From Candidatus Saganbacteria bacterium (GTDB lineage Bacteria > Margulisbacteria > WOR-1 > XYC2-FULL-46-14 > WPAF01), in NCBI GenBank assembly GCA_016223205.1, contig JACRPM010000010.1:26441-90440 (forward strand): a DNA stretch of 64,000 nt, written 5' to 3'. The notes beneath the pieces were generated by a model. It had not been told where the DNA came from. It ran no database searches and saw nothing but the letters and a program-made list of their open reading frames with translations. Of this stretch, positions 4,576-61,278 are shown piece by piece. Position numbers and translations under genes: made by a program. Every line of letters starts with the position of its first letter. Position 1 is the first letter of the stretch.

Positions 4576-4632
4576 TCCCTCTCCACAAAGTGGAGAGGGA
4601 TGTCCCCCGGCTTGCCGGGGGACAGGGTGAGG
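4576..4632. repeat. Family-1 composite palindromic element (tccctctccaCAAAGtggagaggga + cccccggcTTGccggggg + GGGTGAGG), inverted orientation
   Basis: Lies just upstream of the likely mutS start, inside the N-terminal extension of track ORF 4542. Confidence 0.6.
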
Positions 4633-26662: not shown

Positions 26663-26798
26663 CCTCACCCCTTCGCTTCGCTCTTCCCCTCTCCATCAAA
26701 GATGGAGAGGGGCTATCAATAAAAGGAAATCAGTTGACAATCAGAATAACCCCCTCTCTACGAAGTGGAGAGGGGGTGCCCGAAGGGCGGGGGTGAGG
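26663..26798. repeat. Family-1 composite palindromic element (CCTCACCCC ... two CCCCTCTCCA/TGGAGAGGGG-type hairpins ... GGGGTGAGG) filling the alaS-ruvX spacer
   Basis: Outer 9-nt inverted repeat CCTCACCCC/GGGGTGAGG. Hairpins cccctctccaTCAAAGAtggagagggg and ccccctctctaCGAAgtggagaggggg. GC hairpin gcccGAAgggc. An internal TTGACA may serve as the -35 for ruvX. Confidence 0.6.
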
Positions 26799-40725: not shown

Positions 40726-42191
40726 GTTTTCTTTTCCCCCTCAACTACATTATACCCTTCACCGGCGGTCTCGCCGATCACGTTCAGGTCGTGGCGGATG
40801 GCGTCGGTGATCACCCAATCGCAGACCTTAAGTATCATGCGCGGCACACCCTGGCTCATCTTATAAATATTCTCGACCGATTCCGGGGTGAACGGCTTAA
40901 GGCCGGTTCCTCCCGAGTTCTCGATCCTCTTTTGCATCATCTCTTCGGTCTCCTTAACGGAGAGATGCTCCAAGGTCACTTCCAAAATAATGCGGTCGTA
41001 AAATGGAGCGCTCACGCACTTGATCTTGTCCGAGGTCTCCAGTAATCCTGCCAGCACAAAATTTACCCCATTTAGGTCGCCCAGGGTGCGGAGCGGCCGC
41101 TCGAATTCGGCCGAGAACTCATGGGCTTCGTCGAGAAACAATAGGATGTTCTTCTGGGTGGTGCTGGCCAGGGATTCCAGATCGTAGATGGTGAACCGGC
41201 GGTCCTTGGGCTTTTTCAATTTGAGCGATGCGGCCAAGAATTCCAGCAAGTCGTCGAAATTATCGGTGGGGCGGGGGATATAGATAGTATGATAATCGTC
41301 TTTGAGCTTGTCGGCCAGCCACTTGAGCAGGGTGGTCTTGCCTACGCCCTTATTGCCGCAAACCAGGACATGTCCGCTTTTAAGGCAGATCTTCTCAAGG
41401 ATATTCTGCACCTGGGTCTGGTAACCGGTAAAAAGATTGGGTAGGATATCCAGGGTAAAGGGATTGCGCTTCCAGCCGAACTTGGCGTACCACTTGCGCT
41501 GGGCCGCGGTGACCCCGGTCCAGGGCTTGAGCCGCGCGCCGCACTTGGCGCAAAATTCGGCCGCTCCGGGATTGGACCACTTGCATTCGGTGCAGATCTG
41601 CAGTTTTTTCTTTTCCAGATAATCCCGGATATTGGTGTAAGTTATGCGGATAAGCAGAAGAAGGGTCAGGACCGATACCACTCCCATCCACAAGGATATT
41701 TGCTGGATCAGATTTGCGGTAACGGCGGTTGCGGCGGGTGGTTTCTGCGGCCTAAAAAGCGGCGCCCTGGGCTCCTCTTTTTGGGGTTCTTCCTTTTTGG
41801 GCTTGGGCAGGGTAGGAGGCAGAACCTGTCTTAAGCTGGGGAAGGCGGGTTTTTCCTGTACTTTGGGTGGAGGCGGGGGAGGAGCGGCCGGTCCCATCTC
41901 CTTTTTGATCTCATTTTGCAGTTCCATGGCCCGGGTGTGGTTGGGATCGAGCTTCAGCGCCTCGCCCAGGTCCTTAAGGGCGCCTTCGTTATCGCCCAGG
42001 AAGTATTTATTTACCGCGCGGTCGTAGTGGTCGTCTGCGCTTTGGGCGTATCCGGGAGCTTGAAAGCTAATCATCAAAAAACAAACAACAAAAAACAAAC
42101 AAATACCAATATCCATTATCCAATATTTAAATTGAGATTTGGAATTTTGAAATTGTTTGTTATTTGTCATTTGTAATTTATTATTTTTCAT
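40722..42191 (-). CDS. Membrane-anchored TPR / Pro-rich linker / TM / zinc-ribbon / AAA+ ATPase (ExeA/GspA-like)
   Basis: N-terminal TM helix plus TPR (ALKDLGEALKLDPNHTRAMEL). PPPPPPP linker. Second TM helix. CTECK...CAKCG zinc ribbon. Walker A CGNKGVGKTTLLKW and Walker B LLFLDEAHE. Confidence 0.6.
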   Translation of the reverse strand: MKNNKLQMTNNKQFQNSKSQFKYWIMDIGICLFFVVCFLMISFQAPGYAQSADDHYDRAVNKYFLGDNEGALKDLGEALKLDPNHTRAMELQNEIKKEMGPAAPPPPPPKVQEKPAFPSLRQVLPPTLPKPKKEEPQKEEPRAPLFRPQKPPAATAVTANLIQQISLWMGVVSVLTLLLLIRITYTNIRDYLEKKKLQICTECKWSNPGAAEFCAKCGARLKPWTGVTAAQRKWYAKFGWKRNPFTLDILPNLFTGYQTQVQNILEKICLKSGHVLVCGNKGVGKTTLLKWLADKLKDDYHTIYIPRPTDNFDDLLEFLAASLKLKKPKDRRFTIYDLESLASTTQKNILLFLDEAHEFSAEFERPLRTLGDLNGVNFVLAGLLETSDKIKCVSAPFYDRIILEVTLEHLSVKETEEMMQKRIENSGGTGLKPFTPESVENIYKMSQGVPRMILKVCDWVITDAIRHDLNVIGETAGEGYNVVEGEKKT

Positions 42192-43645
42192 TACTTCTTC
42201 TCCAATTTCATGATCAATTGCAGTTTTTTCTGCAGGGCCTGGGCCTGTTTGTTTTTGGGATCCTTGGAGAGCGAGGCATCCACCTGCTCCAGGGCTTCCT
42301 TGTACTTGCCGGTCACCACCAGCTTCAGGGCTTCGCCCAAAAAGCTGCGGGCCTGCTCCTGGCTCTGCTCGATAAGCTGGCTCTCCATTTTGGTCTGGGC
42401 CTCGCTTTGGAGCCGCAGGGCCTCACGGTTGGTGGGCTCGATCCTCAAGGCCTTGCTGAATTCCGCCAGGGCCTCCAAATACTTGCCCTGGGATAAAAAT
42501 CCCTTGCCGGAAGACATTATATCATTGATATCGCGTTTGATCTCAACCGCCAGTTCTGCGAAGACCTTCTCAAAGGCCTCTCTTTCGAGCTCGGCCTGGG
42601 CTTTTTTCAGGAGTATCAGGCCTTCTTCGTTCTTGGGGTCGAGGGTGTTAACCTTTTCAAATCTTATAACCGCATCGGAATATTTTTTCTTATCAAGATA
42701 GGCCTTGCCCAGCGCCAGGTTATCCAAGATGAGCTTCTTGGACTTATCTTCGGCGCCGAAAAGCAGGCTGATGCTCACCTGGTGCGCGGCTCCCAGATCG
42801 GCGTGGCCCAGGTAAGCGTAGTCGAAGGCGAAGAGATTGGCATACAGGCCCAGCCCGGCGCGCAAAGTCCCGCCCGCCGAACCCACTCTTATGGCCAAGA
42901 AATTGCGGATCAAATATTCGGCCCCCAAATTGATCCGCAGGCCTTCGGGGAAAGACACCAGATCGGAATTAAGATTGATATTTTCATCGAAAAGCCGGGT
43001 GGCGAAGGCCGCCCCCAGGCGGTAAGAAGCGGGGAGAGGCGTGTTTTCGGTGACGAATTTTAAGGGGGAGCCCAGATTAAGCGCCGAAACCCCCAGGCAA
43101 AACTGGGAATTGACGCGGTAAGCCAAGCCGCCGTCCAGGGCGAAGGTGGAAGCGGAGCTCCCTTCCAATTTTTCCGAGATCGATTTTACCCCCAAACCGA
43201 ACGAGAGGTTGGGGGTTATCCTTCTGCCCAGGGAAAGATTGATACTGCTGTGAGCGGTGTTAAAGGTGGAGGTTACCGCTCCGGTATTATCGTATCCTTG
43301 TATATCTCCTGAAGATAAGCCCGAATAGCCGATCCCCAGCACCCCGAAATTAACCGGGTACGCGGCTCCCACGATCATCTGGCTGGCGCCGACGAAGTGG
43401 CTGTTGTACAGGCTCAAGACCTCGGGGAAATTAAGCTGGGCCAGGCCCGCCGGGTTATAATACATGGCTGAAATGTCATCCGCTTGCGCTACATAGGCCT
43501 CGCCCATCCCCAAAGGTCTGGCTCCACCGCCTAAGCGGAGAAAATCAGCGCCGGAACTGGAACCAACGCCCGCCTCCGATGGAATAACCAATGAACAAGC
43601 TACAAAAGACAAACAAATAATAAATATCAATTTCCAATTTCTCAT
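42191..43645 (-). CDS. FadL/OmpP1-family (PorV-like) outer-membrane beta-barrel with C-terminal TPR repeats
   Basis: Signal peptide. Motif GGGARPLGMGEAYVAQADDISAMYYNPAGLA. C-terminal 150 aa TPR-like (YLDKKKYSDAVIRFEKVNTLDPKNEEG...). Start overlaps the stop of the upstream cargo gene by 4 nt. Confidence 0.55.
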   Translation of the reverse strand: MRNWKLIFIICLSFVACSLVIPSEAGVGSSSGADFLRLGGGARPLGMGEAYVAQADDISAMYYNPAGLAQLNFPEVLSLYNSHFVGASQMIVGAAYPVNFGVLGIGYSGLSSGDIQGYDNTGAVTSTFNTAHSSINLSLGRRITPNLSFGLGVKSISEKLEGSSASTFALDGGLAYRVNSQFCLGVSALNLGSPLKFVTENTPLPASYRLGAAFATRLFDENINLNSDLVSFPEGLRINLGAEYLIRNFLAIRVGSAGGTLRAGLGLYANLFAFDYAYLGHADLGAAHQVSISLLFGAEDKSKKLILDNLALGKAYLDKKKYSDAVIRFEKVNTLDPKNEEGLILLKKAQAELEREAFEKVFAELAVEIKRDINDIMSSGKGFLSQGKYLEALAEFSKALRIEPTNREALRLQSEAQTKMESQLIEQSQEQARSFLGEALKLVVTGKYKEALEQVDASLSKDPKNKQAQALQKKLQLIMKLEKK

Positions 43646-46600
43646 CTAATTATCACTAATTTGCCTAATTTTTGATCGGTGGCGCTCTTAATAGCATAAA
43701 AATACAAGCCACTCACCACATTTTCTCCCGCGTCGTTTTTGACGTCCCACGCGTTCTGCCCGTCGCCGTCGGATTCATTGATGGTCTTGACCGCATCTCC
43801 GCTCACGGTGAAGATCTTGATGGTGCACTGGGAAGCCAGGTTGGTGAAAGTTATGGTGGTGTGGCCCAGGCCGGAATTGGGTTTAAAAGGATTGGGATAA
43901 GCGTAAGCGATCGACAGGTCGTTGGCCGGCGTGGCCATGGCGGTGAAAGTCGAAAAGCTTTTAACCGGGGCGGATACCAGCTTGGTGGAGGTGTCTACCA
44001 CGCAGCCTGGGACTCTAACCCAGAGTTGACTGGTTTCATTTAAACGATAATTGAGCAGGGCCGAGACCCTGGCCGGCGGAGTCACGTTATCAACGTAGCC
44101 GTCGTTGTTGTCGTCGCGATAGGGGAGGTAAATGGTCGCGTCGCTTTGGAGTTGATCGGTTATGCGAGTTCCCGAAGTATTGTAAACCACGAATTCCCTC
44201 ACATCGCCGGAGATGGGATGCCGGAAAGTGTTGCCTTCTCCCGCGATCTTGGTGGTGGCCGCGGTGATATTTGCCGGGGTTACCACGATGGGATCGCTTT
44301 CCGGATTGGTGCTGATCCTTACATAAAAATCCTGGTTATAGGCGTTGGCCGGGATCACCACTTTGGTCTTGCCGTCGTCGGCGATAACCGTTAAAGAGGC
44401 GGTATGATCCAATATTGTCTCAAATGATGCGCTGAAAGTCGTAGCCAGATGGTCGCCCACCAGATCGGCGGCTTCGGTGGAAACCGTAGCCTGATAAGTA
44501 TAGTTCTTGGTCAAGTTGGAAGTGGGAGTGAAGGTAACGGTGGTTCCCGACCAGGAATACGTCCCATCGATCTGGGTATTGAGGGTATTGCCGTCTTTGT
44601 CCCGGATAGCTTTAAGCCGCAGGGCATTTTCCACCGACGACTGGTTCATAGTTTCGGAGAAGGTGACCCTAACGGTTTCCGATGTGGCCACGCCCACTGC
44701 CAGGTCGGCAGGGGAGACGCTCGTTATAGTTGGTGTTGCCTCGGCGGTTATATTAAAAGTATTGGAGGTAGCCGAAGTTAAGCCGGTAGCGGAGGCGACC
44801 AGGGTGTAGCCGTTCCCGGCATTGTTGATGCTTAGGTTGGAAAAAGAAGCAACGCCGGATGATACGGTCTTGCTGGTGGTGCCGGAAAGTGTTCCGCTCC
44901 CTGGATTGGTGCCGATGGCAAGCGAAACGCTGGTGGTGTTATCGCTGGCCAGCAAATTGCCGTATTGATCTTGCACCTCAACACTCACCGAAGGCGACAT
45001 CGTCACTCCCGCTTCGGTGGTTGAGGGCTGAACGCTGTACGCGACCTTGCTGGCGGGGGCCGAGGCCCAGGCGGCATATCTATAAGTGATGCCGTTAGCA
45101 TTGGTCGCTAATCCTGCTGCGGCGCCCGAGCCGATCTGAAAACCATCGGATTGCAGGGCCTGGATAAGGTCGGAAGCATTGGCGGTATTGGTAAAATATT
45201 GTGCGTTATCGCCCGAAAGCGAGGAGTTCCGGAAGACGGCGTTGGTATTAGCCGTTCCTTCGGGTCTTTTTATCAATAATAATCCGGGAATAAAGCCCAC
45301 GCCGGTGATGTTGCGGTTATCGGTCGCATTTCCCACATAAGTGCTTTCTTTGAATTGGTCGGTTGTGGCTTTAAATGCGAAATAGTGGTAAAGATTGGCT
45401 GCGGTATTGGCCTGCGCGTTGGTCCCGACTTGAAAGCCGGTGGTTTCGAGGGCCTGAATTACATCCGCCGTGTCAGCAGTGACGGAGAAGTAAGCGGTAT
45501 TATCGCCTGCGATCGAAGCGGTGCGGAAAACACCTAAGCTGGCGCCGTCCCTCTTTATCGCCACAATGTCTGGGGTAAAGTCCAGGGCAGGGATTGAGCG
45601 ATTGTCGCCGACCCCGACACCGGTGCTCGTGCCGGTATAAGAGCCCACCACAAAGTTAGTAGAGCCCGAATTGCCGAAAGCTGTCCAGCGGTAAGTGATA
45701 CCGACGGTATTGACCGCAGCATTAGCTCCTATATTAAAACCAGTGCCGGTCAAAGATGTTATCCCGTCCGAAAAATTAGCGGCGGCATTGGCCAGATAGG
45801 CGGTGGAATCAGGCGTCATCTTGGAGGTTGCGAATACTCCGTAGCCCGCGGCGGTATCGGATTTCACGATCACCAGGTCCGGTCGGAAGCCCACCGAGGT
45901 GATCGACATGCTGGTGCCGTTGCCCAAATAAGATCCACTGGACATAGTGAAAGTGTTGGTAGGCGCAGTAGAAGTAACACCCCGAAAAGCCGCAAAATAA
46001 TAAGTGCTGGCGGCGGCATTTACCCGGGCATTGGTCCCGACTTGGAATCCGGCGGCCTCCAAAGTTTGGATGTGATCGACGGCGTTAGCGGTGGCAGTGA
46101 AGATCTGGCTCTCGTCACCGTAATTCTGGTTGCTGCGCAAAACCGCGGCACTGGCGGCGGCGGATTGCTTGACGAACACGAAATCCGGCTTAAAGGCGGT
46201 CTTGCTGATGGAGCGGTTATCCGTCCCGTCGCCCGTATAGCTTTCAACCGACATGCTTTCGGACGTCTTGAAGGCGACATAATAGTAAGTTGCACCGGTA
46301 GAATTTACTTCTGCATTGGCGCCTACCTGGAATCCATCCGCCTGCAAGGCCTGGATGCGGTCTGCGGCAGGAGCAGTAGCTGAAAAATAATGGCTGTTAT
46401 CCGCTCCCATGGAAGAGGTGTACCAGACCCCCAGGTAAGCCCCGTCCCGCTTGGTCCAAACCAAGTTGGGCTGGAAGCCGACCCCAGTAATATTGCGGTC
46501 ATCACTGCCATTGCCGGTATAAGAACCGATTTTTAGATTAACCCCCGTGCTGCTGCGGAACGCGATCCAGACATAGCGCGTATTGCTGACCGAATTGACA

Positions 46601-46955: not shown

Positions 46956-47137
46956 AGCAAACAGTGTGCTAAGACGGAACCTGCGACTAAACGTCGCGGT
47001 TCCTTAAATCTATTGATTTTAATCAGGAAACCGCGAAGTTCATTCGCGGGTTTCCTGATTTCTCATGTCATTTTTTCTGTTAACCACTGCAAGGAAAAAT
47101 AATTAATTATCGTTTACTATTTGGCACACTGTTTGCT
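46956..47137. repeat. Structured intergenic element: 14-nt long-range inverted repeat AGCAAACAGTGTGC/GCACACTGTTTGCT enclosing two GC-clamped hairpins (46976-47003 and 47024-47057)
   Basis: Hairpins GGAACCTGCGAC-TAAAC-GTCGCGGTTCC and CAGGAAACCGCGAA-GTTCA-TTCGCGGGTTTCCTG. Lies downstream of the OmpM-like gene and upstream of the cargo-operon promoter. Probably a terminator/insulator or a MITE-like element. Confidence 0.4.
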
Positions 47138-50485: not shown

Positions 50486-50639
50486 GGTAAATAGGGGAGA
50501 GGGAATGGGGAAGGGGAGAGCACGGAACTTAGAACATAGGGTAAGATCCCTGTGCTCTGTGTTCAGTGCCTGCCTGCCGGCAGGCAGGTTCCGTGCTCCG
50601 TGTTCATTTTTCCCTCACTCTTCACGATTTACTATTTCC
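50486..50639. repeat. Element A: ~150-nt imperfect palindromic repeat with GAACTTAGAACA submotifs and an internal perfect 20-nt palindrome CCTGCCTGCCGGCAGGCAGG (50569-50588)
   Basis: Left end GGTAAATAGGGGAGAGGGAATGGGGAAGG. Right end TTCCGTGCTCCGTGTTCA...CACGATTTACTATTTCC. 11-nt inverted repeat GAGCACGGAAC/GTTCCGTGCTC. Homologous to element C (52341-52499) and partially to element B (51081-51144). Confidence 0.6.
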
Positions 50640-50729
50640 AGTTTTTCTTATTATTGAGCCAAATACTAATTTTGCAGAAGATTGGCATACTAATTGCTAG
50701 GGTGGTGGTTAGGAAGGGAGGTGAAAGAA

Positions 50730-51080
50730 ATGTTCATATTTGAGAATTTGGAGGCCTACAAAAAGGCGGTTGCCCTTGCCAAGAAAATATTCTCCGCAAA
50801 TCGAAGGATTAAGGACCGAACCATCAAGGATCAACTTTGCCGCGCAGTCCTTTCTGTCCCGCTAAACATTGCGGAGGGGCAAGGGCGATACCACCAAAAA
50901 GAAAAGCGGCAATTTTACTGCACGGCAAAGGGTTCACTATACGAAAGTCTGCCGCTGGTGCAACTGTGTTTCGAGCTACAGTATTTCGATATGGCACAAT
51001 ACGAAGAAATATATGGTCTGATGAATGAGATAGGGCGAGTTTTGTCGGGGCTTATAAGATCAGTGAAGGGGGAGGAGTGA
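50730..51080 (+). CDS. Four-helix-bundle protein (23S rRNA intervening-sequence protein family, TIGR02436; Avd-like)
   Basis: MFIFENLEAYKKAVALAKKIF...LCRAVLSVPLNIAEGQGRYHQKEKRQFYCTAKGSLYESLPLVQLCFELQYF matches the 4HB / IVS-protein pattern. GGAGGTG ribosome-binding site 7 nt upstream. Track ORF starts at 50694. Confidence 0.75.
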   Translation: MFIFENLEAYKKAVALAKKIFSANRRIKDRTIKDQLCRAVLSVPLNIAEGQGRYHQKEKRQFYCTAKGSLYESLPLVQLCFELQYFDMAQYEEIYGLMNEIGRVLSGLIRSVKGEE

Positions 51081-51144
51081 ATAGCGAAGGTTAGAACACA
51101 GAACTTAGAACACGGAACTTGGAGCATAGGGCGGAATCGCTATT
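51081..51144. repeat. Element B: short hairpin repeat with tandem AGAACAC(A/G)GAACTT units, between the convergent 4HB and FHA genes
   Basis: AATAGCGAAGG...GAATCGCTATT stem enclosing TTAGAACACAGAACTTAGAACACGGAACTTGGAGCATAGGG. Probable bidirectional terminator. Shares submotifs with elements A and C. Confidence 0.5.
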
Positions 51145-52248
51145 TTAATCTTCTTTAGGTGTGGCCTCGGGCAAAGCCGGCGCGCTCATGGCCTCAATTA
51201 ATTGATTTCTGACCGCCTGTGCTTTTAAACTATCAGCCTTCTCCAAAAGCCCCAGAAAACGATCTCTTTCCGCGGGATTTCTGACTGCTAATAATCTGGC
51301 AATTTCTCGCACATCAAATTGAAATAATATATGGCAAATACTATCATCTAATTTTCTGTGAGCCGCTTTGTTTGAAGATCGGTAGCTTGCCAATGAGCCA
51401 GCGGCACCGCCAATAAAACCACCAATACAAACTAAAGTCGAAATGGGAAAAAGTAAGCCCATTATTCCCCAGCCTACTCCAGAACCTAATAGAGTTTGAA
51501 TAAACGTATTTCTCCAGTCGCGCCGGATTTTATCTTTTCTTTCTAGATAAATAGTGAGAAGTTCATCTGTCGTTCTTGCTTCCGCAAAATCAGTCCCTTC
51601 GATCAGAGATGGATCGATTCGCTTGGTAACTGTCAACCCTTGTTCGGCAATAAAGGTTTGAACTATCGCCAATTGTTCCTGTCGAGCTTGAGCTACTTCC
51701 GGCGTGACCTCTTCAATGGGCGGACGGGTGGCTAAAAGCAGACGGACATCTTCACCGATTTCTTTGGCGGTTTCTAATTGTATCTCCAGATATCTGCCGT
51801 TTTTACCAGGAATAGCACCGCTTAAGTGCAGAACCAACCGTGCGCCCTCGGGTATTAAGCTGCCTTCGAGATTCTTGTCGGTTGGAACAGTTATGGGCCG
51901 GCCGTTCGGCTTAAGGAGGGTAATCGGCTTGTCGGAATAATTTAGGATGCGGAAACTTTTACCCTGCTGATGAATGATCTGCGCATGGTTTAAGTCAATC
52001 TGCGGATCATTGATCCGGATTTCACAGCTTCGATCGCGACCTATGGAGATCGAACCGCCTACGGGAAGATAAATCTTCTGGCCGCCGATATGCAGGGTGG
52101 CTGCGATATTCGCGTTCATCTGGGGATTTAAAAACTGGTTCCGAACCCTTACCCGCACCTCCCCGCCGCCCCTGGCCTCCGCGTTGAATCCAATGTACCT
52201 TTCTCTGACCGCTGTTCTGACCGCTCTAACCGCTCTAACTATTCCCAT
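51145..52248 (-). CDS. FHA-domain protein with C-terminal glycine-zipper transmembrane region
   Basis: FHA core SISIGRDRSCEIRINDPQIDLNHAQIIHQQGKSFRILNYSD...NGRPI. C-terminal LLGSGVGWGIMGLLFPISTLVCIGGFIGGAAGSLASY. Real start is probably MNANIAATL (52119). The 5' extension is a 9-mer tandem repeat (GTTAGAGCG)x2. Confidence 0.55.
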   Translation of the reverse strand: MGIVRAVRAVRTAVRERYIGFNAEARGGGEVRVRVRNQFLNPQMNANIAATLHIGGQKIYLPVGGSISIGRDRSCEIRINDPQIDLNHAQIIHQQGKSFRILNYSDKPITLLKPNGRPITVPTDKNLEGSLIPEGARLVLHLSGAIPGKNGRYLEIQLETAKEIGEDVRLLLATRPPIEEVTPEVAQARQEQLAIVQTFIAEQGLTVTKRIDPSLIEGTDFAEARTTDELLTIYLERKDKIRRDWRNTFIQTLLGSGVGWGIMGLLFPISTLVCIGGFIGGAAGSLASYRSSNKAAHRKLDDSICHILFQFDVREIARLLAVRNPAERDRFLGLLEKADSLKAQAVRNQLIEAMSAPALPEATPKED

Positions 52249-52340
52249 TGATGTCCCTCCTAGAGGATCTGCTTTCCTATGTATATATCGTTAAAAACGA
52301 GGCCGGATTTCACTTATTAAGGGATATTTTTAGAATTGAT

Positions 52341-52499
52341 TAAATAGGGAGGAGTAAATTGGGAAGGTTAGAACACAGAACTTAGAGCACCGAACTTAGA
52401 ACACAGGGCGGAATCCCTCCCTGTGCTCCGTGCTCCGTGTTCTGTGTTCCGTGCTCCATGTTCTTTCCGTCCCTCTCCACTATTCCCTATTTACTATCC
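52341..52499. repeat. Element C: ~160-nt imperfect palindromic repeat (long hairpin) with tandem GAACTTAGAACAC units
   Basis: Left arm GGAAGGTTAGAACACAGAACTTAGAGCACCGAACTTAGAACACAGGG. Right arm CCCTGTGCTCCGTGCTCCGTGTTCTGTGTTCCGTGCTCCATGTTCTTTCC. Termini TAAATAGGGAGGAG / CCCTCTCCACTATTCCCTATTTACTATCC are homologous to the element A termini. Confidence 0.6.
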
Positions 52500-53954: not shown

Positions 53955-55182
53955 GGTAGGCGTAGTCCAAGATTACCTGGTTGATCATGATCGAGGCGCC
54001 GGCGGTCTTACTGCCGTCGTTTAATCCGGCCCGCAAGGCCAGGCCGGGAAAGGGACGGAATTCAGCGCCATAATGGTTGGTTTGCGGTTTGCCCGACTGG
54101 CGAAAAATATTCTGGATATCCGCGGCCACGGTGAGCTCATCGATAGGGGTGACAGCCAGGCCGCAGTTGATCGACATGCGATAGGTGAGGTTGGTCCCGT
54201 TCTCAAAGTGAATATCGGTGGTCAGTATCTCCTTGGCCACCGCCCCAAAGGCCAGCTGGTCCACCGGCCGCAAAAGCAAGCCCAGGTCGATCCCCGCCCC
54301 ATAACCTTTCAGGTTCACGCTGGGGATCTTGATGTCGTAGAAATTGAGGTTGCTGCCCAGCGCCACCCGCTCCTCATAGCCGGTGGCCAGCGTGAGGGTG
54401 TAATAATTGGTTTTCTGGTCCTGCACGGAATTATTGTCCGTCAACCAGGATAATCCTCCCGCGAACTGTGCCTTGCCCTGGGGGGAATATTCTTCCTCCG
54501 CCGGGCGTTCATCCCAATAGGTAGGGCGGTGATAATCGCGGTAGTAATAGGGATACGCCCAAGGACCCCAGTAGACGTTTACCGAGGTATGGCGGGCCAC
54601 TTCCTTAGCGGTCGAGGCGGTCGAAGAAAGCGCTTGTTCGGTGACCTGCGCGGCCTTTTCTTTTATCTTTTGACCCACCGCCACGGTCTTTTCGGTGCCG
54701 CCTTCCTTTACCTTTTCCGCCGGCGACTCCGTTTGGTCCACCTTTTCAGTGGATCTTCCCCAGTTTTTCTTGAGCACTCCCTGGTCCGAAAGATATTTAG
54801 CGCCTTCGAGCGCCACCAGGGAAACGACGCCGATGCCGGCGACCCAAAGAAAAGGATTAAGCTCGGTCTCGAAGTTCATCTTGAGCGCTAAAAGGTTGTC
54901 GCCGAGGCAGGCGTTGCGGTTTGAAATTACAGTGGTTCCGGTGATATCCACGCCGGGATTGCGCGCTAATCCCGCCGGGTTCCACCAGGCGGCGTTGGCA
55001 TCGTCGGAGATGGCCACAAAAGCCCCGCCCATGCCCAGCGGTCGCGCCCCGAAATTTGCGAATGATTGAGAGGCAAGAGTAAGCACCAACAAGCCGGCGA
55101 ATAAATTCGCGGTTAAATTTAGGCGAGAATTTATTCTCGGCTTCACAAGTGTTATTCTAGCAAAGCCGCCTTGCAGAAGCAA
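53902..55182 (-). CDS. FadL/OmpP1-family (PorV-like) outer-membrane beta-barrel, third paralogue
   Basis: Signal peptide, then FGARPLGMGGAFVAISDDANAAWWNPAGLA. 426 aa. C-terminal ...LTWRL. The 5' end (signal n-region) is encoded by a family-3 palindromic repeat. Confidence 0.55.
   Translation of the reverse strand: MLLQGGFARITLVKPRINSRLNLTANLFAGLLVLTLASQSFANFGARPLGMGGAFVAISDDANAAWWNPAGLARNPGVDITGTTVISNRNACLGDNLLALKMNFETELNPFLWVAGIGVVSLVALEGAKYLSDQGVLKKNWGRSTEKVDQTESPAEKVKEGGTEKTVAVGQKIKEKAAQVTEQALSSTASTAKEVARHTSVNVYWGPWAYPYYYRDYHRPTYWDERPAEEEYSPQGKAQFAGGLSWLTDNNSVQDQKTNYYTLTLATGYEERVALGSNLNFYDIKIPSVNLKGYGAGIDLGLLLRPVDQLAFGAVAKEILTTDIHFENGTNLTYRMSINCGLAVTPIDELTVAADIQNIFRQSGKPQTNHYGAEFRPFPGLALRAGLNDGSKTAGASIMINQVILDYAYLGGNFNRTQIAGLTWRL
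55081..55134. repeat. Family-3 palindromic mini-repeat (AAGCCG-GCGAATAAATTCGC-GGTTAAATTTAG-GCGAGAATTTATTCTCGGC-TT)
   Basis: Near-identical to 2633-2666 and 61311-61344. Forms two adjacent hairpins bounded by AAGCCG/CGGCTT. Confidence 0.55.
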
Positions 55183-55800
55183 GAAAGAGCTGGTAAAATG
55201 GCCGGCATGTGGATTTTTGATCGGGCGCGCGAAATATTATTGTTCCCCAAAGAGGCCTGGGAGAAGATAAAACTCGAGGAGATCAAGGACTGGAAGACGA
55301 TCATCATATATCCGGTGGTGCTGGCCCTATTCTCCGCGGCCGCTTTTTTTATTGGCTACTTCATTGTAGGAGTAAGGATTGGGGTGGTTGGTTATTACCG
55401 GATGTCAGCTATTGATGCTTTCTTTTCAGCGGTAGTTTTTTTCTTTTTAGCTCTGCTGGGTGTGGTGGTCACTGGCTTCATTATTTTATTCCTGGCTAGT
55501 TATTTTTTGGCGGAGGGGGATTTTTTTGCAGCCCTAAAGCTTTCCGTTTATTCGGCGACCGCACCGATTTTAGCGTCAGCTTTTAATATTATTCCCGGGT
55601 TAAAAATTCTTGAGATACTGGGATTGTATGGTGCTTACTTATTGTATGCGGGTATTCCTTTGCTTATGAAGGCCCCGCACGATAAAGAACAACAATTTAT
55701 TTTCACTTCCATAATTTTTGCTGTGGTAATGGTATTACTAATCCATGCTTTAGTAGGTTCTTATGTGTCCCCTATCTTTAGGGAGATGATAGTTTATTAG
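55171..55800 (+). CDS. Yip1-family polytopic membrane protein (tentative)
   Basis: 209 aa. 4-5 predicted TM helices after a soluble N-terminal segment (WIFDRAREILLFPKEAWEKI), resembling Yip1/DUF1282 topology. Confidence 0.35.
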   Translation: MQKQERAGKMAGMWIFDRAREILLFPKEAWEKIKLEEIKDWKTIIIYPVVLALFSAAAFFIGYFIVGVRIGVVGYYRMSAIDAFFSAVVFFFLALLGVVVTGFIILFLASYFLAEGDFFAALKLSVYSATAPILASAFNIIPGLKILEILGLYGAYLLYAGIPLLMKAPHDKEQQFIFTSIIFAVVMVLLIHALVGSYVSPIFREMIVY

Positions 55801-55815
55801 CTCCTTTACCCCGCA

Positions 55816-57252
55816 ATGAAAATCGAACGACATAAAATACCCGAGAGACCGGTTAACGAGCGCATCAAGGACTTTGAGGAAGTGGCGCTCGGCTACACCA
55901 TTGAGACCGCCATCGAAGAGGCCCAGCGCTGCATCCAATGCCAAAATCCCAAGTGTGTGGGAGGCTGTCCGGTGGAGATCGACATTCCCGCCTTTCTAAA
56001 GCTCATCGCCGCCGGCGATATGGAAGGGGCCATTCGTAAGATCAAAGAAAAGAATTCCCTGCCTGCCGTTTGTGGAAGGGTCTGTCCGCAAGAGGACCAG
56101 TGCGAAAAGGTGTGCATACTGGGAATTAAAGGGAAACCGGTGGCGGTAGGAGCATTGGAGAGGTTTGTGGCGGACCAGGCCTCACCCCTTTCTTCTCCTT
56201 CGCCTACGGCTTCGGAGAATTCATTCCCCTCTCCATCGAAGATGGAGAGGGGTGTCCCGATGAATCGGGACGGGGTGAGGATTGCCGTCGTCGGCTCCGG
56301 TCCCGCGGGGCTTACTTGTGCGGGAGATTTAGCCAAACTGGGTTATCAGGTCACGCTGTTTGAGTCGCTTTCGACCCCCGGCGGGGTGTTGGTCTACGGC
56401 ATTCCTGAATTCCGCCTGCCCAAGAAGATCGTGGAGATCGAGATCGATTATGTCAGATCGTTGGGGGTAGAACTGATCACCGATGTTTTGATCGGCAAGA
56501 CCATAACTATCGAGGAGCTGTTCGCCCAAGGGTTCAAGGCCGTCTTTATCGGTTCGGGCGCCGGTCTGCCGCAATTTTTGGGGGTCCCGGGAGAAAATCT
56601 TCTGGGAGTTTATTCCGCCAATGAGTTCTTATCACGGGTAAATTTAATGAAGGCCTATAAATTCCCCGAATATTTAACGCCGGTCAAGGTGGGAAAGAAG
56701 GTGGCGGTGCTGGGGGCGGGGAACGTGGCCATGGACGCGGCGCGGGTCTCGCTTCGCCTGGGAGCAAAAGAAGTTACCATCGTCTATCGCCGCAGCCGTA
56801 AGGAAATGCCTGCCCGGGCGGAGGAGATCGAGAGGGCGGAGGAGGAGGGGATCGTTTTCAAACTGCTCACCGCGCCCACCGAAATACGCGGGGATAAGAA
56901 CGGCTGGGTGCAGGAAATGGAATGCCTGGAGATGGAGCTGGGCGAGCCCGACGCATCGGGCCGCAGAAGGCCGGTCCCCAAGGAAGGATCCGAATTCGTA
57001 TTTCCGGTCGATACCATCATCTCCGCCATCGGCAACAAGCCCAATCCTTTGATCCCCCGCGAAACCTTAGAACTAAAAGTGGAAAAGTGGGGTGGGGTGA
57101 TAATCAATGAAAGCACCCGCATGACCTCTATTCCCGGGGTTTTCGCGGGAGGGGACATCGTGAGGGGAGCGGCCACGGTAATTTCCGCCATGGGGGACGG
57201 CAAAAAGGCTGCCGAGCAGATCAACGCGTATTTATCCAAGCTCGGAACCTGA
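55816..57252 (+). CDS. GltD-family NAD(P)H-dependent oxidoreductase (glutamate synthase small-subunit-like / NfnB/SudA-like)
   Basis: N-terminal Fe-S Cys clusters CIQCQNPKCVGGCP and CGRVCPQEDQCEKVC. FAD motif IAVVGSGPAGLTCAGDLAKLG. NAD(P) motif VAVLGAGNVAMDAAR. Carries an in-frame family-1 repeat in the inter-domain linker. Confidence 0.8.
   Translation: MKIERHKIPERPVNERIKDFEEVALGYTIETAIEEAQRCIQCQNPKCVGGCPVEIDIPAFLKLIAAGDMEGAIRKIKEKNSLPAVCGRVCPQEDQCEKVCILGIKGKPVAVGALERFVADQASPLSSPSPTASENSFPSPSKMERGVPMNRDGVRIAVVGSGPAGLTCAGDLAKLGYQVTLFESLSTPGGVLVYGIPEFRLPKKIVEIEIDYVRSLGVELITDVLIGKTITIEELFAQGFKAVFIGSGAGLPQFLGVPGENLLGVYSANEFLSRVNLMKAYKFPEYLTPVKVGKKVAVLGAGNVAMDAARVSLRLGAKEVTIVYRRSRKEMPARAEEIERAEEEGIVFKLLTAPTEIRGDKNGWVQEMECLEMELGEPDASGRRRPVPKEGSEFVFPVDTIISAIGNKPNPLIPRETLELKVEKWGGVIINESTRMTSIPGVFAGGDIVRGAATVISAMGDGKKAAEQINAYLSKLGT
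56180..56280. repeat. Family-1 composite palindromic element inserted in-frame in the gltD-like CDS (CCTCACCCC ... CCCCTCTCCA-TCGAAGA-TGGAGAGGGG ... GTCCCGAT-GAA-TCGGGAC ... GGGGTGAGG)
   Basis: About 101 nt bounded by the same 9-nt inverted termini as the 26663-26798 copy. It encodes the S/P-rich linker SPLSSPSPTASENSFPSPSKMERGVPMNRDGV, which is absent from typical GltD homologues. Confidence 0.6.
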
Positions 57253-57269
57253 TTGTTTAACCGCGACGT

Positions 57270-58544
57270 TCAGTCGCTGGTTACTAAGATTATCGAATTA
57301 TAGGTTATATCAACCAATTTTCTAAGTTCTGCTTCCGAAATGCTCAAAGGCGGCATAAGCACAATGACATTTCCCAGCGGTCGAAGGATCGCGCCCAATT
57401 TGCGGGCTCTCAATATCACCGGTTGCGCGGGAATATTTAGTTCGATCCCCACCATAAATCCCAATTGCCTGATCTCTTTTACCTGCTTTAATTTGGTGAA
57501 GGGCTTTAACGATTGAGACAGCAATTTTATTTTGGGCTGAAGCTTCTCGATCGTTCTTTCTTTCCTGAAGATCTCCAGATTAGCGAGGGCAGCGGCGCAG
57601 GCCAAAGGATTTCCGGTATAAGTATGGCCGTGGTAAAAGGTGTGATCAAGGAAAGCCCGGTAGATCTTTTCAGATGTTAAGGTAGCAGCCAGGGGCAAGT
57701 ATCCCCCGGTAATTCCTTTGGCGACACACATCAGGTCGGGCGTGATGCCAACGTGCTCGCAGGCGAACATTTTACCGGTTCGTCCAAAGCCGGCGGCCAC
57801 TTCATCCACGATCAAAAGCACATCATATTTTGAGCATAATCTGCGGACCGCTTTGAGATATCCCGGCGGATAAAACAGCATCCCGGCGGCGGCCTGGATA
57901 AGCGGTTCTACGATCATCGCGGCGATCTCTGGATGGCGGGTTTTCAGGATGTTTTCGAGCGCCTGGATATTTCCCGACGGCACTTTCAGCGATTTAAAAA
58001 GCAGGGGTTTATAGGTTTTATGGAAAAGGTCTATGCCCCCGACCGACACCGAGCCGATGGTATCGCCGTGATAGGCGTTGGTCAGGGTGAGGAATTTGGT
58101 TTTACCCCCTCTCTTTCTCCCCCTTAATAAGGGGGAGACGGAGGAGGGGGTGATCTGCCAATAATGGAAAGCCATCTTTAAGGCGATCTCCACCGCCTCC
58201 GAGCCCGAGTCGGAATAAAAGACACGAGTTAAACCCCGGGGAGCGAGCTTTACCAGTTTTTCCGCCAATTCTATCGAAGGGACATTGCCCAGGCCTAAAA
58301 GTGTAGAGTGGGCGATCTTTTTTAATTGGTTTTCGATGGCCCGGTCGAGCTCGGCCTTACGGTGGCCGTGGACCGTGACCCAGAGGGAAGAAACCCCGTC
58401 CAGGTATTTTCTGCCTTTGGTATCAAAGAGATAACTGCCTTTCCCCCTTTCGATGATGAGAGGTTCGCTCTTTTCCCAACCCTTCTGGTCGGTAAAAGGA
58501 TGCCAGAGGTATTGCCGGTCTTTTTTATCTAGCGCTTTTGCCAT
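57270..58544 (-). CDS. bioA: Adenosylmethionine-8-amino-7-oxononanoate aminotransferase
   Basis: 424 aa. N-terminal DRQYLWHPFTDQ. PLP-aminotransferase class III fold. Contains an in-frame family-2 repeat. Confidence 0.9.
   Translation of the reverse strand: MAKALDKKDRQYLWHPFTDQKGWEKSEPLIIERGKGSYLFDTKGRKYLDGVSSLWVTVHGHRKAELDRAIENQLKKIAHSTLLGLGNVPSIELAEKLVKLAPRGLTRVFYSDSGSEAVEIALKMAFHYWQITPSSVSPLLRGRKRGGKTKFLTLTNAYHGDTIGSVSVGGIDLFHKTYKPLLFKSLKVPSGNIQALENILKTRHPEIAAMIVEPLIQAAAGMLFYPPGYLKAVRRLCSKYDVLLIVDEVAAGFGRTGKMFACEHVGITPDLMCVAKGITGGYLPLAATLTSEKIYRAFLDHTFYHGHTYTGNPLACAAALANLEIFRKERTIEKLQPKIKLLSQSLKPFTKLKQVKEIRQLGFMVGIELNIPAQPVILRARKLGAILRPLGNVIVLMPPLSISEAELRKLVDITYNSIILVTSD
58104..58152. repeat. 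Family-2 palindromic element (ACCCCCTCTCTTTCTCCCCCTT-AATA-AGGGGGAGA...GAGGGGGTG), in-frame in bioA, preceded by GGGTGAGG
   Basis: It encodes QITPSSVSPLLRGRKRGGKTK, which is about 12 aa longer than the corresponding E. coli BioA segment YWQARGEARQRF. Near-identical copy at 60275-60343. Confidence 0.6.
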
Positions 58545-59167
58545 TTGAGCTTAGCCATGATCGGGATACCCGTTAGTTCTTCTATCACTTCTGTATTAGT
58601 CCTTTCCGAGAGATCTTTACGTTTAAACCCGTTAAGGACTATTCCCGCGATCCGTATCTTCCTTTTTCTTAAGGCCTCCACCGTAAGCAATGTATGGTTG
58701 ATGGTGCCCAGCCCCGCCCGCGCCACCACAAGGGCGGGCAGGCCCAGATCTTTTATCAGGTCCGCCACCAGATAATCGCGTTTTATGGGTACCATAACCC
58801 CGCCGATCCCCTCCACCAGCAGGCAATCGTGTTTATTTGATAATTTATGAAAAGCGGAAAATATTGGGGATAAAGAAAGCTTTTTCTTTTGCAGTTGGGA
58901 AGCGGGGTAGGGGGCGAGGGGCAAGGAAAGATGGATAGGATTTATCAAGTTGATAGGGTCTTTCAATTTGAGTTTTCTTTTTAGATAAAGAGCGTCATTC
59001 TCTTTCTGCGGGCCGCAGGAGATGGGTTTCATTACGCCAATATCCAGCCCCTCTTTTTTCAAGAGTTCCGCCAGCCAGAGCGTGACGTAGGTCTTGCCTA
59101 CGCCGGTATCAGTTCCCGTAATGAAGAAGCCAGGCAAGCTATATCCTCCTTGGTGTGCTGGGCGCAA
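58529..59167 (-). CDS. bioD: Dethiobiotin synthetase
   Basis: GFFITGTDTGVGKTYVTLWL P-loop. 212 aa. Overlaps bioF by 70 nt and bioA by 16 nt. Confidence 0.85.
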   Translation of the reverse strand: MRPAHQGGYSLPGFFITGTDTGVGKTYVTLWLAELLKKEGLDIGVMKPISCGPQKENDALYLKRKLKLKDPINLINPIHLSLPLAPYPASQLQKKKLSLSPIFSAFHKLSNKHDCLLVEGIGGVMVPIKRDYLVADLIKDLGLPALVVARAGLGTINHTLLTVEALRKRKIRIAGIVLNGFKRKDLSERTNTEVIEELTGIPIMAKLKWQKR

Positions 59168-60273
59168 ATTGTGAGCCGCAGACGGCTTTGACCCGGGGGC
59201 ACGGTCGGCGGGCGGATGGCCGAAAGCAAAATGCCGCGGGTGAAAAGTTGATTGGAGATTTCTAATGTTTTTTCGGGTGGGCCTATGATGATAGGAATGA
59301 TGGGGGATAAGGAACCTGGGGCTGAACGCCCCGGTTCCTTGGAGCCGCGACGTTCAGTCGCAGGCGAAGAATAGTAATCAATATTTTTTCTCAATTTTTC
59401 AAGAAGGGATAAATCCTTCTCGATCAACTCCAGCGCGGCCAGGGCAGCAGCGCAGGAGGCAGGCGGCAGGGCGGTGGTATAAATGAACGAACGCGATTTA
59501 TTGCGCAGGTAATCGATCAAATTCTTTGGACCTGCCACAAAGCCGCCCAGGGAGCCGATGGCCTTGGATAAAGTTCCCATCACGATGTCGGTTCGGCCTT
59601 CGCAATTAAAATGTTCTTCCAGACCTCTTCCTGTCTTCCCGAGCACTCCCGTAGAATGGGCCTCGTCTATCATCACTAAGGCCTTATGATTTTTTGCCAG
59701 CATTAATATATCGAGCAGCGGCGCCAGGTCCCCGTCCATGCTGAAGACCGAATCGGTTACGATAAGCCGCTTGCCGAAGTTTTGCGACTTGCCCAGGAGC
59801 TTTTCCAAAGCATTCATATCCCGATGGGGGAAGACCTGCAGTTTGGCGCGGGATAATTTGCAGGCATCGATTATCGAGGCATGATCCAGGCGGTCGATGA
59901 TCACGGTATCTTTTTCGTCTACCAATGCGGAAACAACGCCCAGGTTAGCCATAAAGCCGGTAGGGAAAACGATCGCCGCTTCTCTTTTTTTGAACTCGGC
60001 TATCTTCCGCTCGAGCTTTTCGTGAAGAACAAGGTTGCCGGAAATTAAACGAGACGCTCCCGCTCCAGTGCCGTACTTTTCTACTGCTTCTTTGGCGGCA
60101 GCCACGACTGCCGGATGATTCGCCAAGCCCAGATAATTGTTAGAGCAGAAATTCAGATAGAGTTTTTCGTCGATGGTTACCGTTCGGCCATCGGTCTTCT
60201 CAATGGTCTTAAGCGAGCGATAAAGGCCGGAATCTTTGATATCCGACAATTCTTTTTCGATGAAGTCCAGCAT
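59098..60273 (-). CDS. bioF: 8-amino-7-oxononanoate synthase
   Basis: 391 aa. PLP-dependent acyl-CoA transferase fold. C-terminal ...AIRPPTVPPGQSRLRLTI. Contains a low-complexity in-frame insertion encoded by two hairpin repeats. Confidence 0.9.
   Translation of the reverse strand: MLDFIEKELSDIKDSGLYRSLKTIEKTDGRTVTIDEKLYLNFCSNNYLGLANHPAVVAAAKEAVEKYGTGAGASRLISGNLVLHEKLERKIAEFKKREAAIVFPTGFMANLGVVSALVDEKDTVIIDRLDHASIIDACKLSRAKLQVFPHRDMNALEKLLGKSQNFGKRLIVTDSVFSMDGDLAPLLDILMLAKNHKALVMIDEAHSTGVLGKTGRGLEEHFNCEGRTDIVMGTLSKAIGSLGGFVAGPKNLIDYLRNKSRSFIYTTALPPASCAAALAALELIEKDLSLLEKLRKNIDYYSSPATERRGSKEPGRSAPGSLSPIIPIIIGPPEKTLEISNQLFTRGILLSAIRPPTVPPGQSRLRLTICAQHTKEDIACLASSLRELIPA
59311..59361. repeat. Two GC-clamped hairpin repeats in-frame in bioF (GGAACCTGGGGC-TGAACG-CCCCGGTTCC and GCCGCGACGTTCAGTCGC)
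   Basis: The second hairpin is 17/17 identical to 57261-57277 (gltD/bioA convergent spacer). The first resembles the GGAACC...GGTTCC hairpin at 46976-47003. They encode SSPATERRGSKEPGRSAPGSL in place of the roughly 14-aa KQRLEEAGF... segment of E. coli BioF. Confidence 0.5.
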
Positions 60274-61278
60274 TTACCCCCTCTCTTTCTCCCCCTTGGC
60301 AAGGGGGAGAGGTCCCGAGCTTTGTCGAGGGACAGAGGGGGTGTCTACTTCTAACCCCAAATCCGCTAACATCCGCAAATCTTTCTCCGGCGCCTGGCCC
60401 TTGGTCGTCAAATAATCCCCGATCAAAGTCACATTCGCTCCTGCCAAAAACATCAAGGGCTGGAGCGTGCCCAACGATAATTCCCTCCCCCCAAAGACGC
60501 CGATATCCTTGTCCTGCAATATCAGTCGATAAACCGCCACCAGACGGAGTACTTCCAAAGGTGGCATAGGCCGATAATTTTTTGCGGCGGGAGTGCCGGG
60601 GATGGGATTTAAGATATTTATCGGTACGGAATCCACCTTGAGTTCCGCCAGAGTGAAGGCCAGCTCCACTCTCTGCTCCGGTGTTTCCCCTAGGCCGAAA
60701 ATGCCGCCCGAACAAACCTCTAAACCCTCTGCTTTTGCCGCTTTGATGGTGGCCAATCTTTCCTGGTAAGTATGCGTGGTGCAAACCTGGTTGAAAAAGC
60801 TTTCCGCGGTCTCGAGATTATGGTGTAATCGCTTCAGCCCGGCGGCCTTGAGTTTTTTGATCTGCTCTTTGGAAAGCGTACCGAGCGAAACACAACGATC
60901 CAGCTTAGTTTGGCTTTTAATGGCGGAAAGGACCCCGGCAATGTCCTCAATTTCCTGGTCGGTTTTGACCGATTTTCCGGCGGTCACTATACTAAAGCAG
61001 GTGGCGTGGAAATTCTTTTCGGAATCGGTAGCGGATTTAAACATCTCATCCTTGGAGAGCAGGGGGTAGATGGGTGTTTTGGTTGAAAAATGGCCGGATT
61101 GGGCGCAGAACGAACAGTTCTCGCTGCAGCGGCCCGATTTGGCGTTAACGATCGCGCAGAGCTTTACTTTATTACCTTTGAATTTCCGGCGGGTCTCGTC
61201 GGCTTTAGCCAAAAGAGAGAAGGTCTCTTCGTCGGAAGAATTAATAAGATTTATTGCTTCTTTGAAAGATAAGGTCAT
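60274..61278 (-). CDS. bioB: Biotin synthase (radical SAM)
   Basis: CSENCSFC Fe-S/SAM motif. 334 aa. The C-terminal tail ...PLPLAKGEKERG is encoded by a family-2 palindromic element. Confidence 0.9.
   Translation of the reverse strand: MTLSFKEAINLINSSDEETFSLLAKADETRRKFKGNKVKLCAIVNAKSGRCSENCSFCAQSGHFSTKTPIYPLLSKDEMFKSATDSEKNFHATCFSIVTAGKSVKTDQEIEDIAGVLSAIKSQTKLDRCVSLGTLSKEQIKKLKAAGLKRLHHNLETAESFFNQVCTTHTYQERLATIKAAKAEGLEVCSGGIFGLGETPEQRVELAFTLAELKVDSVPINILNPIPGTPAAKNYRPMPPLEVLRLVAVYRLILQDKDIGVFGGRELSLGTLQPLMFLAGANVTLIGDYLTTKGQAPEKDLRMLADLGLEVDTPSVPRQSSGPLPLAKGEKERG
60275..60343. repeat. Family-2 palindromic element at the bioB/bioF junction (ACCCCCTCTCTTTCTCCCCCTT-GGC-AAGGGGGAGAG + GTCCC...GGGAC + CAGAGGGGGTG)
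   Basis: 24 of 26 nt identical to the bioA copy. It supplies the last 10 codons and the stop of bioB. The bioF ATG follows the TAA directly. Confidence 0.6.

Follow-up and report, generated by a model that had tools for sequence, protein, structure and literature searches.

An in-frame palindromic repeat in the interdomain linker of an NfnB-type oxidoreductase of Candidatus Saganbacteria

In-frame palindromic repeats are regarded as a hallmark of Rickettsia, where in some families of Rickettsia palindromic elements (RPEs) about half of the copies are genic, as summarised in a recent review (Ogata et al. 2000, 2002; PMC10969869). The same 2024 review of small transposable elements of the miniature inverted-repeat type (MITEs) still treats the in-frame frequency of RPEs as exceptional and speculates on similar processes elsewhere (PMC10969869). 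Intragenic copies of repetitive extragenic palindromic (REP) sequences of the GTAG/CGTC type are known from several species, a minority of copies lying in genes and contributing 20-80 residues, and in Xanthomonas recB different REPs occur at about one site (Di Nocera et al. 2013, PMC3733652). Here we describe a 101-nt palindromic element, a member of a repeat family that we call family 1, which lies in frame within the nfnB gene of a Candidatus Saganbacteria metagenome-assembled genome (MAG). The window, i.e. the whole stretch of DNA analysed, comprises 64,000 nt (GenBank assembly GCA_016223205.1, contig JACRPM010000010.1, positions 26,441 to 90,440), and all coordinates are window positions unless a locus is named. 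With a probability of roughly three in four, we interpret the segment as one copy of a dispersed, modular repeat that is rich in hairpins and belongs to genomes of the Saganbacteria/Margulisbacteria type, REP-/MITE-like selfish DNA that has replaced a protein linker in frame and is tolerated there.

The element is spanned by an open reading frame (ORF) with neither stop nor frameshift across its 478 aa (Table 1). The encoded protein matches the Pfam families Fer4_20 (aa 16-122, E = 4e-43) and Pyr_redox_2 (aa 155-462, E = 3e-36), and the insert lies between the N-terminal 2x[4Fe-4S] domain and the Rossmann strand of the FAD domain, exactly where the initial annotation had placed a complete element with both termini. 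These termini are perfect 9-nt terminal inverted repeats (TIRs), GGGGTGAGG being the reverse complement of CCTCACCCC. Counted together with its reverse complement, the terminal 9-mer occurs five times in the window compared with 0.63 expected, and none of 100 dinucleotide-preserving shuffles reached five. In full, the segment reads CCTCACCCC-TTTC-(TTCTCC TTCG CCTACGG CTTCG GGAGAA)-TTCATT-(CCCCTCTCCATC GAA GATGGAGAGGGG)-T-(GTCCCGA TGAA TCGGGAC)-GGGGTGAGG. It had been described with two internal hairpins; we found three, enclosed by the paired termini, and the first of them has another small hairpin within its loop. A 121-nt stretch around the element folds with -70 kcal/mol, compared with -44 +/- 4 for dinucleotide shuffles (z = -6.4).

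Table 1. Position of the host gene, of the element and its parts, and of two related intergenic copies in the window
Feature	Position	Strand	Remarks
NfnB / 'NADPH-dependent glutamate synthase' (TIGR01316 gltA-type) oxidoreductase	55816-57252	+	478 aa, intact ORF
Family-1 palindromic element	56180-56280	canonical A-B-C polarity on -	101 nt; read on + as aa 122-155
Terminal inverted repeat CCTCACCCC	56180-56188		9 nt
Hairpin module C, TTCTCC..GGAGAA	56193-56219		nested hairpin GCCTACGGC in loop
Invariant spacer	56220-56225		bases 1-6 of AATTCATT, which is AATGAATT reverse-complemented
Invariant core hairpin B, CCCCTCTCCATC-GAA-GATGGAGAGGGG	56226-56252		12-bp stem; encodes PSPSKMERG
Hairpin module A (variable), GTCCCGA-TGAA-TCGGGAC	56254-56271		
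Terminal inverted repeat GGGGTGAGG	56272-56280		last codons G-V-R ahead of beta-strand IAVVG
Intergenic family-1 relative	4445-4632		inverted dimer of half-units around AT-rich spacer; starts directly after stop at 4444
Intergenic family-1 relative	26663-26798		two inverted TIR-hairpinA-hairpinB half-units, 38-nt AT-rich spacer

The element contains no stop codon in the host frame, which is regained behind it, and encodes the peptide A122-R155 (ASPLSSPSPTASENSFPSPSKMERGVPMNRDGVR) immediately N-terminal to IAVVGSGPAG; the first base of the Ala122 codon is the only host-derived base in this coding stretch. Among solved structures the closest are NfnB of T. maritima (4ylf_B, E = 4e-163) and NfnI-L of P. 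furiosus (5jca_L, E = 1e-160). The sole long gap relative to them is the linker, the host protein being about 15 residues longer than 4ylf_B and about 10 longer than 5jca_L. An AlphaFold2 model built from a 112-sequence alignment reached a mean predicted local distance difference test score (pLDDT) of 87.2 and a predicted TM-score of 0.87, and superimposes on the solved NfnI-L and NfnB with TM 0.88 and 0.87. In this otherwise confident model, residues 127-148 within the insert are the only segment with pLDDT <50. Modelling, proposed at the outset as a check of whether the insert is a surface loop, hence gives a positive answer: the insert is predicted to form a disordered surface loop between helix 111-122 and strand 155-159, compatible with the fold. 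A first model from a 25-sequence alignment (pLDDT 60.6) had been discarded as too poor and the 112-sequence model was used in its place.

The same element is found at many unrelated loci. In canonical polarity, family 1 reads CCTCACCC(C) - module A - CCCCTCTCCAT(C)nnn(G)ATGGAGAGGGG - AATGAATT - hairpin C - AAGAAA - GGGGTGAGG; the hairpin named beside the CCTCACCCC termini as a mark of the family is CCCCTCTCC. For a census, public metagenome contigs were scanned for the family-specific 17-mer GGAGAGGGGAATGAATT, and the figures given here come from the matches listed, at least 120 stretches. These contain at least 24 distinct complete elements of 72-137 nt, most of the matches being chance 17-mers, and with the copies from other loci 27 distinct full copies are known from unrelated contigs, core and termini being invariant. 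The stem of hairpin C exists in at least eight versions, every one of them perfectly complementary (CGCC/GGCG, CTCCGCC/GGCGGAG, CCGAC/GTCGG, TCGAC/GTCGA, GCGAC/GTCGC, CCCCGA/TCGGGG, TTCCGCC/GGCGGAA and CTCCGTC/GACGGAG), and these differences are compensatory variation. They were judged by folding each copy, as a MAFFT alignment of the full elements left hairpin C structurally unaligned. Three copies (window, L145, L214) carry an extra small hairpin within the module C loop. Because modules A and C are combined differently in different copies and the stems are always complementary, the family is maintained as a set of hairpins that recombine or turn over module by module.

In the window itself, two intergenic relatives both start right after the upstream stop codon (TGA followed directly by CCTCACCCC), and the second of them fills, bar one base, the gap from the stop at 26662 to the start at 26800. 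The ORF downstream of the first has its first ATG (4542) inside the element, which leaves the true start of that gene uncertain. Two 17-mer matches on viral contigs both came without the rest of the element and are attributed to chance. Neither a 68-aa tandem of two insert peptides compared with protein databases nor a phmmer search of the insert against 1.84 billion representatives gave a match, the queries being too short and too biased in composition for these negatives to be informative. The generic DNA pattern GGAGAGGGGN{10,40}GGGGTGAGG matched genome contigs across many phyla, which shows only that this style of motif is widespread. Among the matches listed, the generic pair GGAGAGGGG..GGGGTGAGG (L008-L127) was seen in Anaerolineae and other Chloroflexota, Myxococcota, Cyanobacteria, Bacteroidota, Planctomycetota and others.

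Of these 24 elements, eight are situated in frame within long ORFs, namely in NfnB (twice), LeuRS, PriA, MiaB, RsmH, an LplA-like ligase and GH42. Pfam domains were found on both sides of the insert in LeuRS (catalytic/editing), PriA (3'BD/helicase) and MiaB (UPF0004/radical SAM). In RsmH and the LplA/LipB-like ligase the insert is inside the matched Pfam domain, and in the GH42 beta-galactosidase, a partial ORF with a Pfam domain downstream only, it precedes the trimerisation domain. The two NfnB copies (L170, on the same contig as L001, and L246) are flanked on both sides by conserved NfnB sequence. Three more genic copies come from other loci, one in a PabB-like gene (L002; Pfam match downstream only) and two again in NfnB, which brings the element in frame into at least eight gene families. 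With regard to the host gene, six copies are oriented forward and five in reverse. The forward reading is (S/A)SPR..HPSPSxMERGMN..KKGVR and the reverse reading (T/S/A)SPLSSP..NSFPSPSKMERG..GVR; unlike these two dominant readings, the copy in LeuRS is read in the third frame. All 11 genic copies have a length of 2 mod 3, though their module lengths differ. With this length two frames are often open per orientation, the TGA in GGGGTGAGG closing the remaining one. As a mark of genic copies this length was considered and dropped: eight of 11 canonical intergenic copies are likewise 2 mod 3 and the contrast is not significant, therefore the bias belongs to the family and not to its genic members.

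A structure of -70 kcal/mol within a coding sequence is a severe obstacle, and one may ask whether the insert is present in the mature protein at all. The gene might have become a pseudogene recently, or translational bypassing or RNA excision might skip the 101 nt, a case for comparison being the GC-rich 'byp' elements of yeast mitochondrial genes. We consider this very unlikely. In all 11 genic copies, defined as such by lying in open spanning frames, the host frame is free of stops and exactly restored, which bypassing does not need. The host protein retains all conserved motifs and scores 583.7 bits with TIGR01316 (NCBIfam; cutoff 471.75). An Rfam search of 55500-57500 gave no family, intron or ribozyme, the sole match being a sub-threshold serC leader (17 bits, cutoff 35).

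To see how the linker varies among relatives, we compared 112 aligned orthologues, the window protein included, which are 64-91% identical. The linker is hypervariable, with 17-48 residues, and largely repeat-derived. Family-1 linker peptides occur in 13 of the 112, and the claim that this linker is absent from homologues did not hold, as 12 of the 111 other orthologues carry one of the family-1 type. At least 15 of the 112 have other linkers of a GC-rich palindrome type (PPLNLPLxKGE.., PSPPNPLSQ.., LTPNPSLNKRG.., PLPEGEG), and about 33 of the 112 have A-rich tracts of the KS type. These A-rich K/S/N/Q linkers (KSKVKSQK, NPKSEIRNK, QIQNSN..; e.g. L007:9335-9451) resemble translated A-rich dispersed repeats; peptides of this type are also present in the GH42 linker of L006, and the window has A-rich repeats at 42069-42138 and 43583-43652.

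In L001/L002 (P0012), whose protein is about 75% identical, the element has the orientation and boundaries of the window copy, whereas in L003 (a Margulisbacteria MAG) and L246 it is reversed at the same place in NfnB. A family-1 form without hairpin C makes up the linker of L250. Homologous linkers lacking the palindromic DNA structure were not found among these: in L001, L003, L246 and L250 the linker is the same palindromic element in DNA. The closest syntenic relatives (Yip1 - [AMP-ligase] - nfnB - bioA-bioD-bioF-bioB), with DNA 83-88% identical downstream of the linker, have no family 1 here. In L004, L005 and L006 the linker carries a second palindromic family (family 2) with termini CCCCCTCT/AGAGGGGG, whose hairpin TCTCCCCCTT..AAGGGGGAGA is shared by L005 and L006, the internal hairpin of L004 being different. 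L007 has an A-rich non-palindromic tract with a minimum free energy (MFE) of -15.8. The window element fills the whole linker from GAC CAG G to ATT GCC (ADQ to IAVVG), and in the DNA alignment it stands where L005 has 'EREQK + family-2 element + K'; it has therefore replaced a linker and was not simply added to one. The common 3' boundary (..GGGGTGAGG followed by ATwGC) simply reflects the onset of conservation at the Ile of IAVVG.

An old, vertically inherited linker of this NfnB clade, palindromic by chance and never inserted, would be in keeping with the homologous linker and identical boundaries in L001 and with the related linkers in the 12 other orthologues. On the NfnB similarity map, however, the family-1 linkers are scattered. 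Once the linker is masked, nearly all family-1 carriers have as their nearest neighbours proteins with unrelated linkers: the window protein and P0008 are 95% identical outside the linker, P0026 is 94% identical to P0088 and P0064, and in each case the linkers are unrelated. DNA of such neighbour pairs shows different palindromes at the same site. The family-1 linkers are therefore polyphyletic and their turnover is fast relative to the rest of the gene. Opposite orientations at one site and the presence of the same element in LeuRS, PriA, MiaB, RsmH, LplA-like, GH42 and PabB-like genes as well as in intergenic DNA also argue against vertical inheritance, which we regard as highly improbable and already largely refuted. 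The orthologue alignment suggested in the initial annotation thus cuts both ways: homologous linkers are common in relatives, at the expense of uniqueness, and the unrelated linkers of the nearest relatives support a dispersed element. Judged from these alignments, the NfnB linker is a clear hotspot of recurrent replacement.

Short repeats can lead to mis-joins in metagenome assemblies, and a repeat-induced chimera could in principle have put the element into the gene. The flanks are, however, one continuous syntenic gene with the insert in frame, the L001-type allele is identical in two independent data sets (JGI and ENA), and the phenomenon recurs in many genes of independent assemblies, so that an assembly artefact can practically be neglected.

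We propose that the element came to fill the whole NfnB interdomain linker, displacing the prior one, whose DNA may have been lost by deletion after insertion or swapped via break repair or gene conversion between palindromic copies. As it is free of stops in the host frame, which is restored behind it, the element would be transcribed and translated with the gene. It would persist there by virtue of a linker that seems to tolerate almost any sequence of 17-48 residues, presumably as a neutral passenger, and no sign of a function added by the insert was noticed. The distribution of the family suggests spread by some mobilising mechanism, and copies would survive only in permissive linkers and at gene ends. 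The initial view of a mobile palindrome integrated into a protein without loss of frame is borne out as regards a dispersed element in frame, given the intact ORF and the genic copies elsewhere; simple addition has to give way to replacement, and mobility is read from the distribution.

Alternatively, the element could be kept for a function, be it as a portable flexible linker cassette, in mRNA stability or regulation, or through mRNA hairpins slowing the ribosome between the Fe-S and FAD domains, which might help co-translational folding or cluster insertion. Most genic copies are located at domain boundaries, and those in NfnB, GH42, RsmH and MiaB just ahead of a beta-strand. The compensatory changes preserve the hairpins even within genes, all genic copies fall into one length class that often leaves two frames open per orientation, and the peptides are Ser/Pro/Gly-rich with a basic GVR at the end, the final AGG of the element giving a basic residue where orthologues have K/R. 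All this would suit a function. Purifying selection alone would, however, leave the same bias in position. Both orientations are about equally frequent in genes, the hairpins are as well conserved in intergenic copies, which fits a constraint on the element itself, and solved homologues have short ordinary linkers. The closest relatives do well with unrelated linkers, including the non-palindromic A-rich one of L007. We therefore regard retention for a function as unlikely.

Several points weigh against tolerated selfish DNA as an explanation. No target-site duplication was found at any copy inspected, the preceding and following bases being variable, and neither a transposase nor an autonomous partner with such termini turned up in the 0.87 Mb of loci that bear the family, where the only CCTCACCCC...GGGGTGAGG pair 0.4-5 kb apart spans ordinary genes. 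No empty NfnB site was found, every close relative having another repeat there, and insertion is therefore inseparable from gene conversion or replacement. A length of 2 mod 3 is not predicted by plain frame-preserving insertion (0 mod 3), and this length class hints at a coding-related constraint beyond a selfish or neutral model. Placement at domain boundaries is equally expected from a linker or pausing function. Finally, that the insert is translated, most likely as a 34-residue Ser/Pro/Gly-rich disordered loop, is what we infer from the reading frame.

A broader possibility, decidedly unlikely in our view, is that the family and the other repeats at the same sites act as a general engine of linker evolution, i.e. 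as protein-compatible, boundary-preferring linker cassettes that are exchanged. On this reading the cassettes are stop-free in two frames in either orientation, have a length of 2 mod 3 and yield Ser/Pro/Gly-rich peptides ending in a basic residue; exchange could proceed through palindrome-induced breaks repaired from other copies, and the mRNA hairpins could pause ribosomes between domains. If this were true, interdomain linkers of housekeeping enzymes in Saganbacteria/Margulisbacteria would be continuously rewritten by repeat cassettes.

Compared with the Rickettsia RPEs, family 1 is likewise a dispersed palindromic repeat (about 100-150 nt), a sizeable fraction of its copies (8/24 here) are in-frame insertions in housekeeping genes unrelated to one another, the peptide is predicted at the protein surface and the host genes are intact. 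Unlike RPEs, it is found in free-living, uncultured Saganbacteria/Margulisbacteria, is shorter and GC-rich, has 9-nt inverted termini and exchangeable hairpin modules, and is coding in both orientations; at the NfnB site it and other repeat families replace one another instead of just adding to the linker. The RPE-like reading of the initial annotation was borne out by the same element at unrelated loci, by its in-frame copies, by presence/absence or replacement between close syntenic relatives and by the low-confidence loop. We accordingly place family 1, a multi-copy hairpin repeat in frame in unrelated intact genes with a predicted loop, in the RPE-like class. A relation in sequence to RPEs is not evident and is unlikely, and with a Candidatus Saganbacteria MAG as host we do not claim membership in RPE-1 to RPE-10.

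With the GTAG/CGTC REPs, family 1 shares the short stem-loops, the frequent inverted dimers and the location mostly just after stop codons, as seen in both intergenic window copies (Table 1). It differs from them as a three-hairpin composite bounded by inverted termini whose modules (A, B and C) show no conserved GTAG/CGTC tag; GACG or GTAG happens to occur in just a few variants of module C. In contrast to RAYT-mobilised REPs, no RAYT/TIRYT gene turned up, the window ORFs not having been exhaustively scanned for one. Small dispersed repeats (SDR) of Nostoc and relatives are said to be hairpin units of 21-27 nt that nest in one another and in larger repeats (reportedly described by Elhai et al. 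in 2008). The hairpins nested in the module C loop of three family-1 copies resemble this, the hosts being lineages sibling to Cyanobacteria, whereas a composite of about 100 nt differs from units of 21-27 nt; we compared the two by description only. Like MITEs (ERIC, QMITE, cyanobacterial; PMC10969869), family 1 is small, has TIRs and strong secondary structure and occasionally forms translational fusions with host ORFs; unlike them, it shows no target-site duplication, no parent insertion sequence with matching termini is known, and its coding fraction is unusually high.

Family 1 thus works like the RPE, REP and MITE systems and fits no named family. It extends the 'protein-coding palindromes' of the Rickettsia type to a further phylum, and a literature search found no paper on Saganbacteria together with palindromic repeats. 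Frequent protein-coding palindromes have so far been seen as a peculiarity of Rickettsia, with scattered intragenic REPs elsewhere; a second, unrelated lineage now joins them, in which about one third of the sampled copies lie in coding frames and would be translated, including those of essential enzymes (LeuRS, PriA, MiaB, RsmH, NfnB). More than 100 orthologues with near-identical domains, whose linkers have repeatedly been replaced by different repeat families, make the NfnB linker a natural experiment in which the turnover rate of interdomain linkers, the range of tolerated sequences and the question of whether selfish DNA supplies linkers become measurable. Annotators should recognise such segments, as they make MAG proteins vary in length and show low-complexity "motifs" that are spurious.

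Repeat-derived residues are not restricted to nfnB, four consecutive genes of the window carrying them. The bioA gene (57270-58544, minus strand) contains at 58105-58150 a family-2 element (CCCCCTC..TCTCCCCCTTATTAAGGGGGAGA..GAGGGGG) that encodes TPSSVSPLLRGRKRGG in frame; this element is present in the window and in L005 and is not found in L004, L006 and L007, 48 nt replacing 15 nt in the DNA. In bioF (59098-60273, minus strand), an in-frame insert of 18 residues at about 59305-59360 (PATERRGSKEPGRSAPGS) consists of two hairpins, GCGACTGAACGTCGC and GGAACCGGGGCGTTCAGCCCCAGGTTCC; it is not present in L004, L005 and L007, and L006 has an unrelated 7-residue segment there. In bioB (60274-61278, minus strand), a family-2 element at 60276-60341 makes up the last 21 residues (..PRQSSGPLPLAKGEKERG) and the stop codon context and abuts the start codon of bioF, while BioB of the relatives ends 21 residues sooner. 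A hairpin similar to those of the bioF insert lies at 3829-3856, and 'EPRRSxAGS' peptides also appear in the NfnB and GH42 linkers of relatives.

The GH42 linker before IAIYYSK contains family 1 in L141 (L141:1841-1941) and other repeat-like sequences in L004-L007 (KEPRRSAAGSVRS, KSQKSKVKIAG, RNSKFVIRNS), and is, from these alignments, a second hypervariable, repeat-colonised linker. With regard to the gene order around nfnB, nfnA (DHODB_Fe-S_bind) is located directly upstream of nfnB in L001, L003, L251 and L252. A tblastn search with NfnA of L001 gave no match anywhere in the window or in L004-L007, and the NfnA partner gene of the window nfnB may be located elsewhere in the genome. In the window (55171-57252) and in the syntenic L004-L007, nfnB is preceded by a gene for a Yip1-family membrane protein or an AMP-ligase.

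Matching hairpins were further noted at 57259-57282 and 46978-47001 (AACCGCGACGTTCAGTCGCTGGTT / AACCTGCGACTAAACGTCGCGGTT). The first is located between nfnB and bioA at their convergent ends, with which it overlaps in part, is terminator-like and is related to the hairpins of the bioF insert. In the regions of about 6400-18000 and 50487-52418, extensive internal direct repeats of about 1.16 kb and about 0.3 kb presumably represent repeated domains of very large proteins, and three shorter repeats (about 50-70 nt), GTAAATAGGGGAGAGG..AGAACACAGAACTTAGAACA, form a set of their own at 50487, 51063 and 52340.

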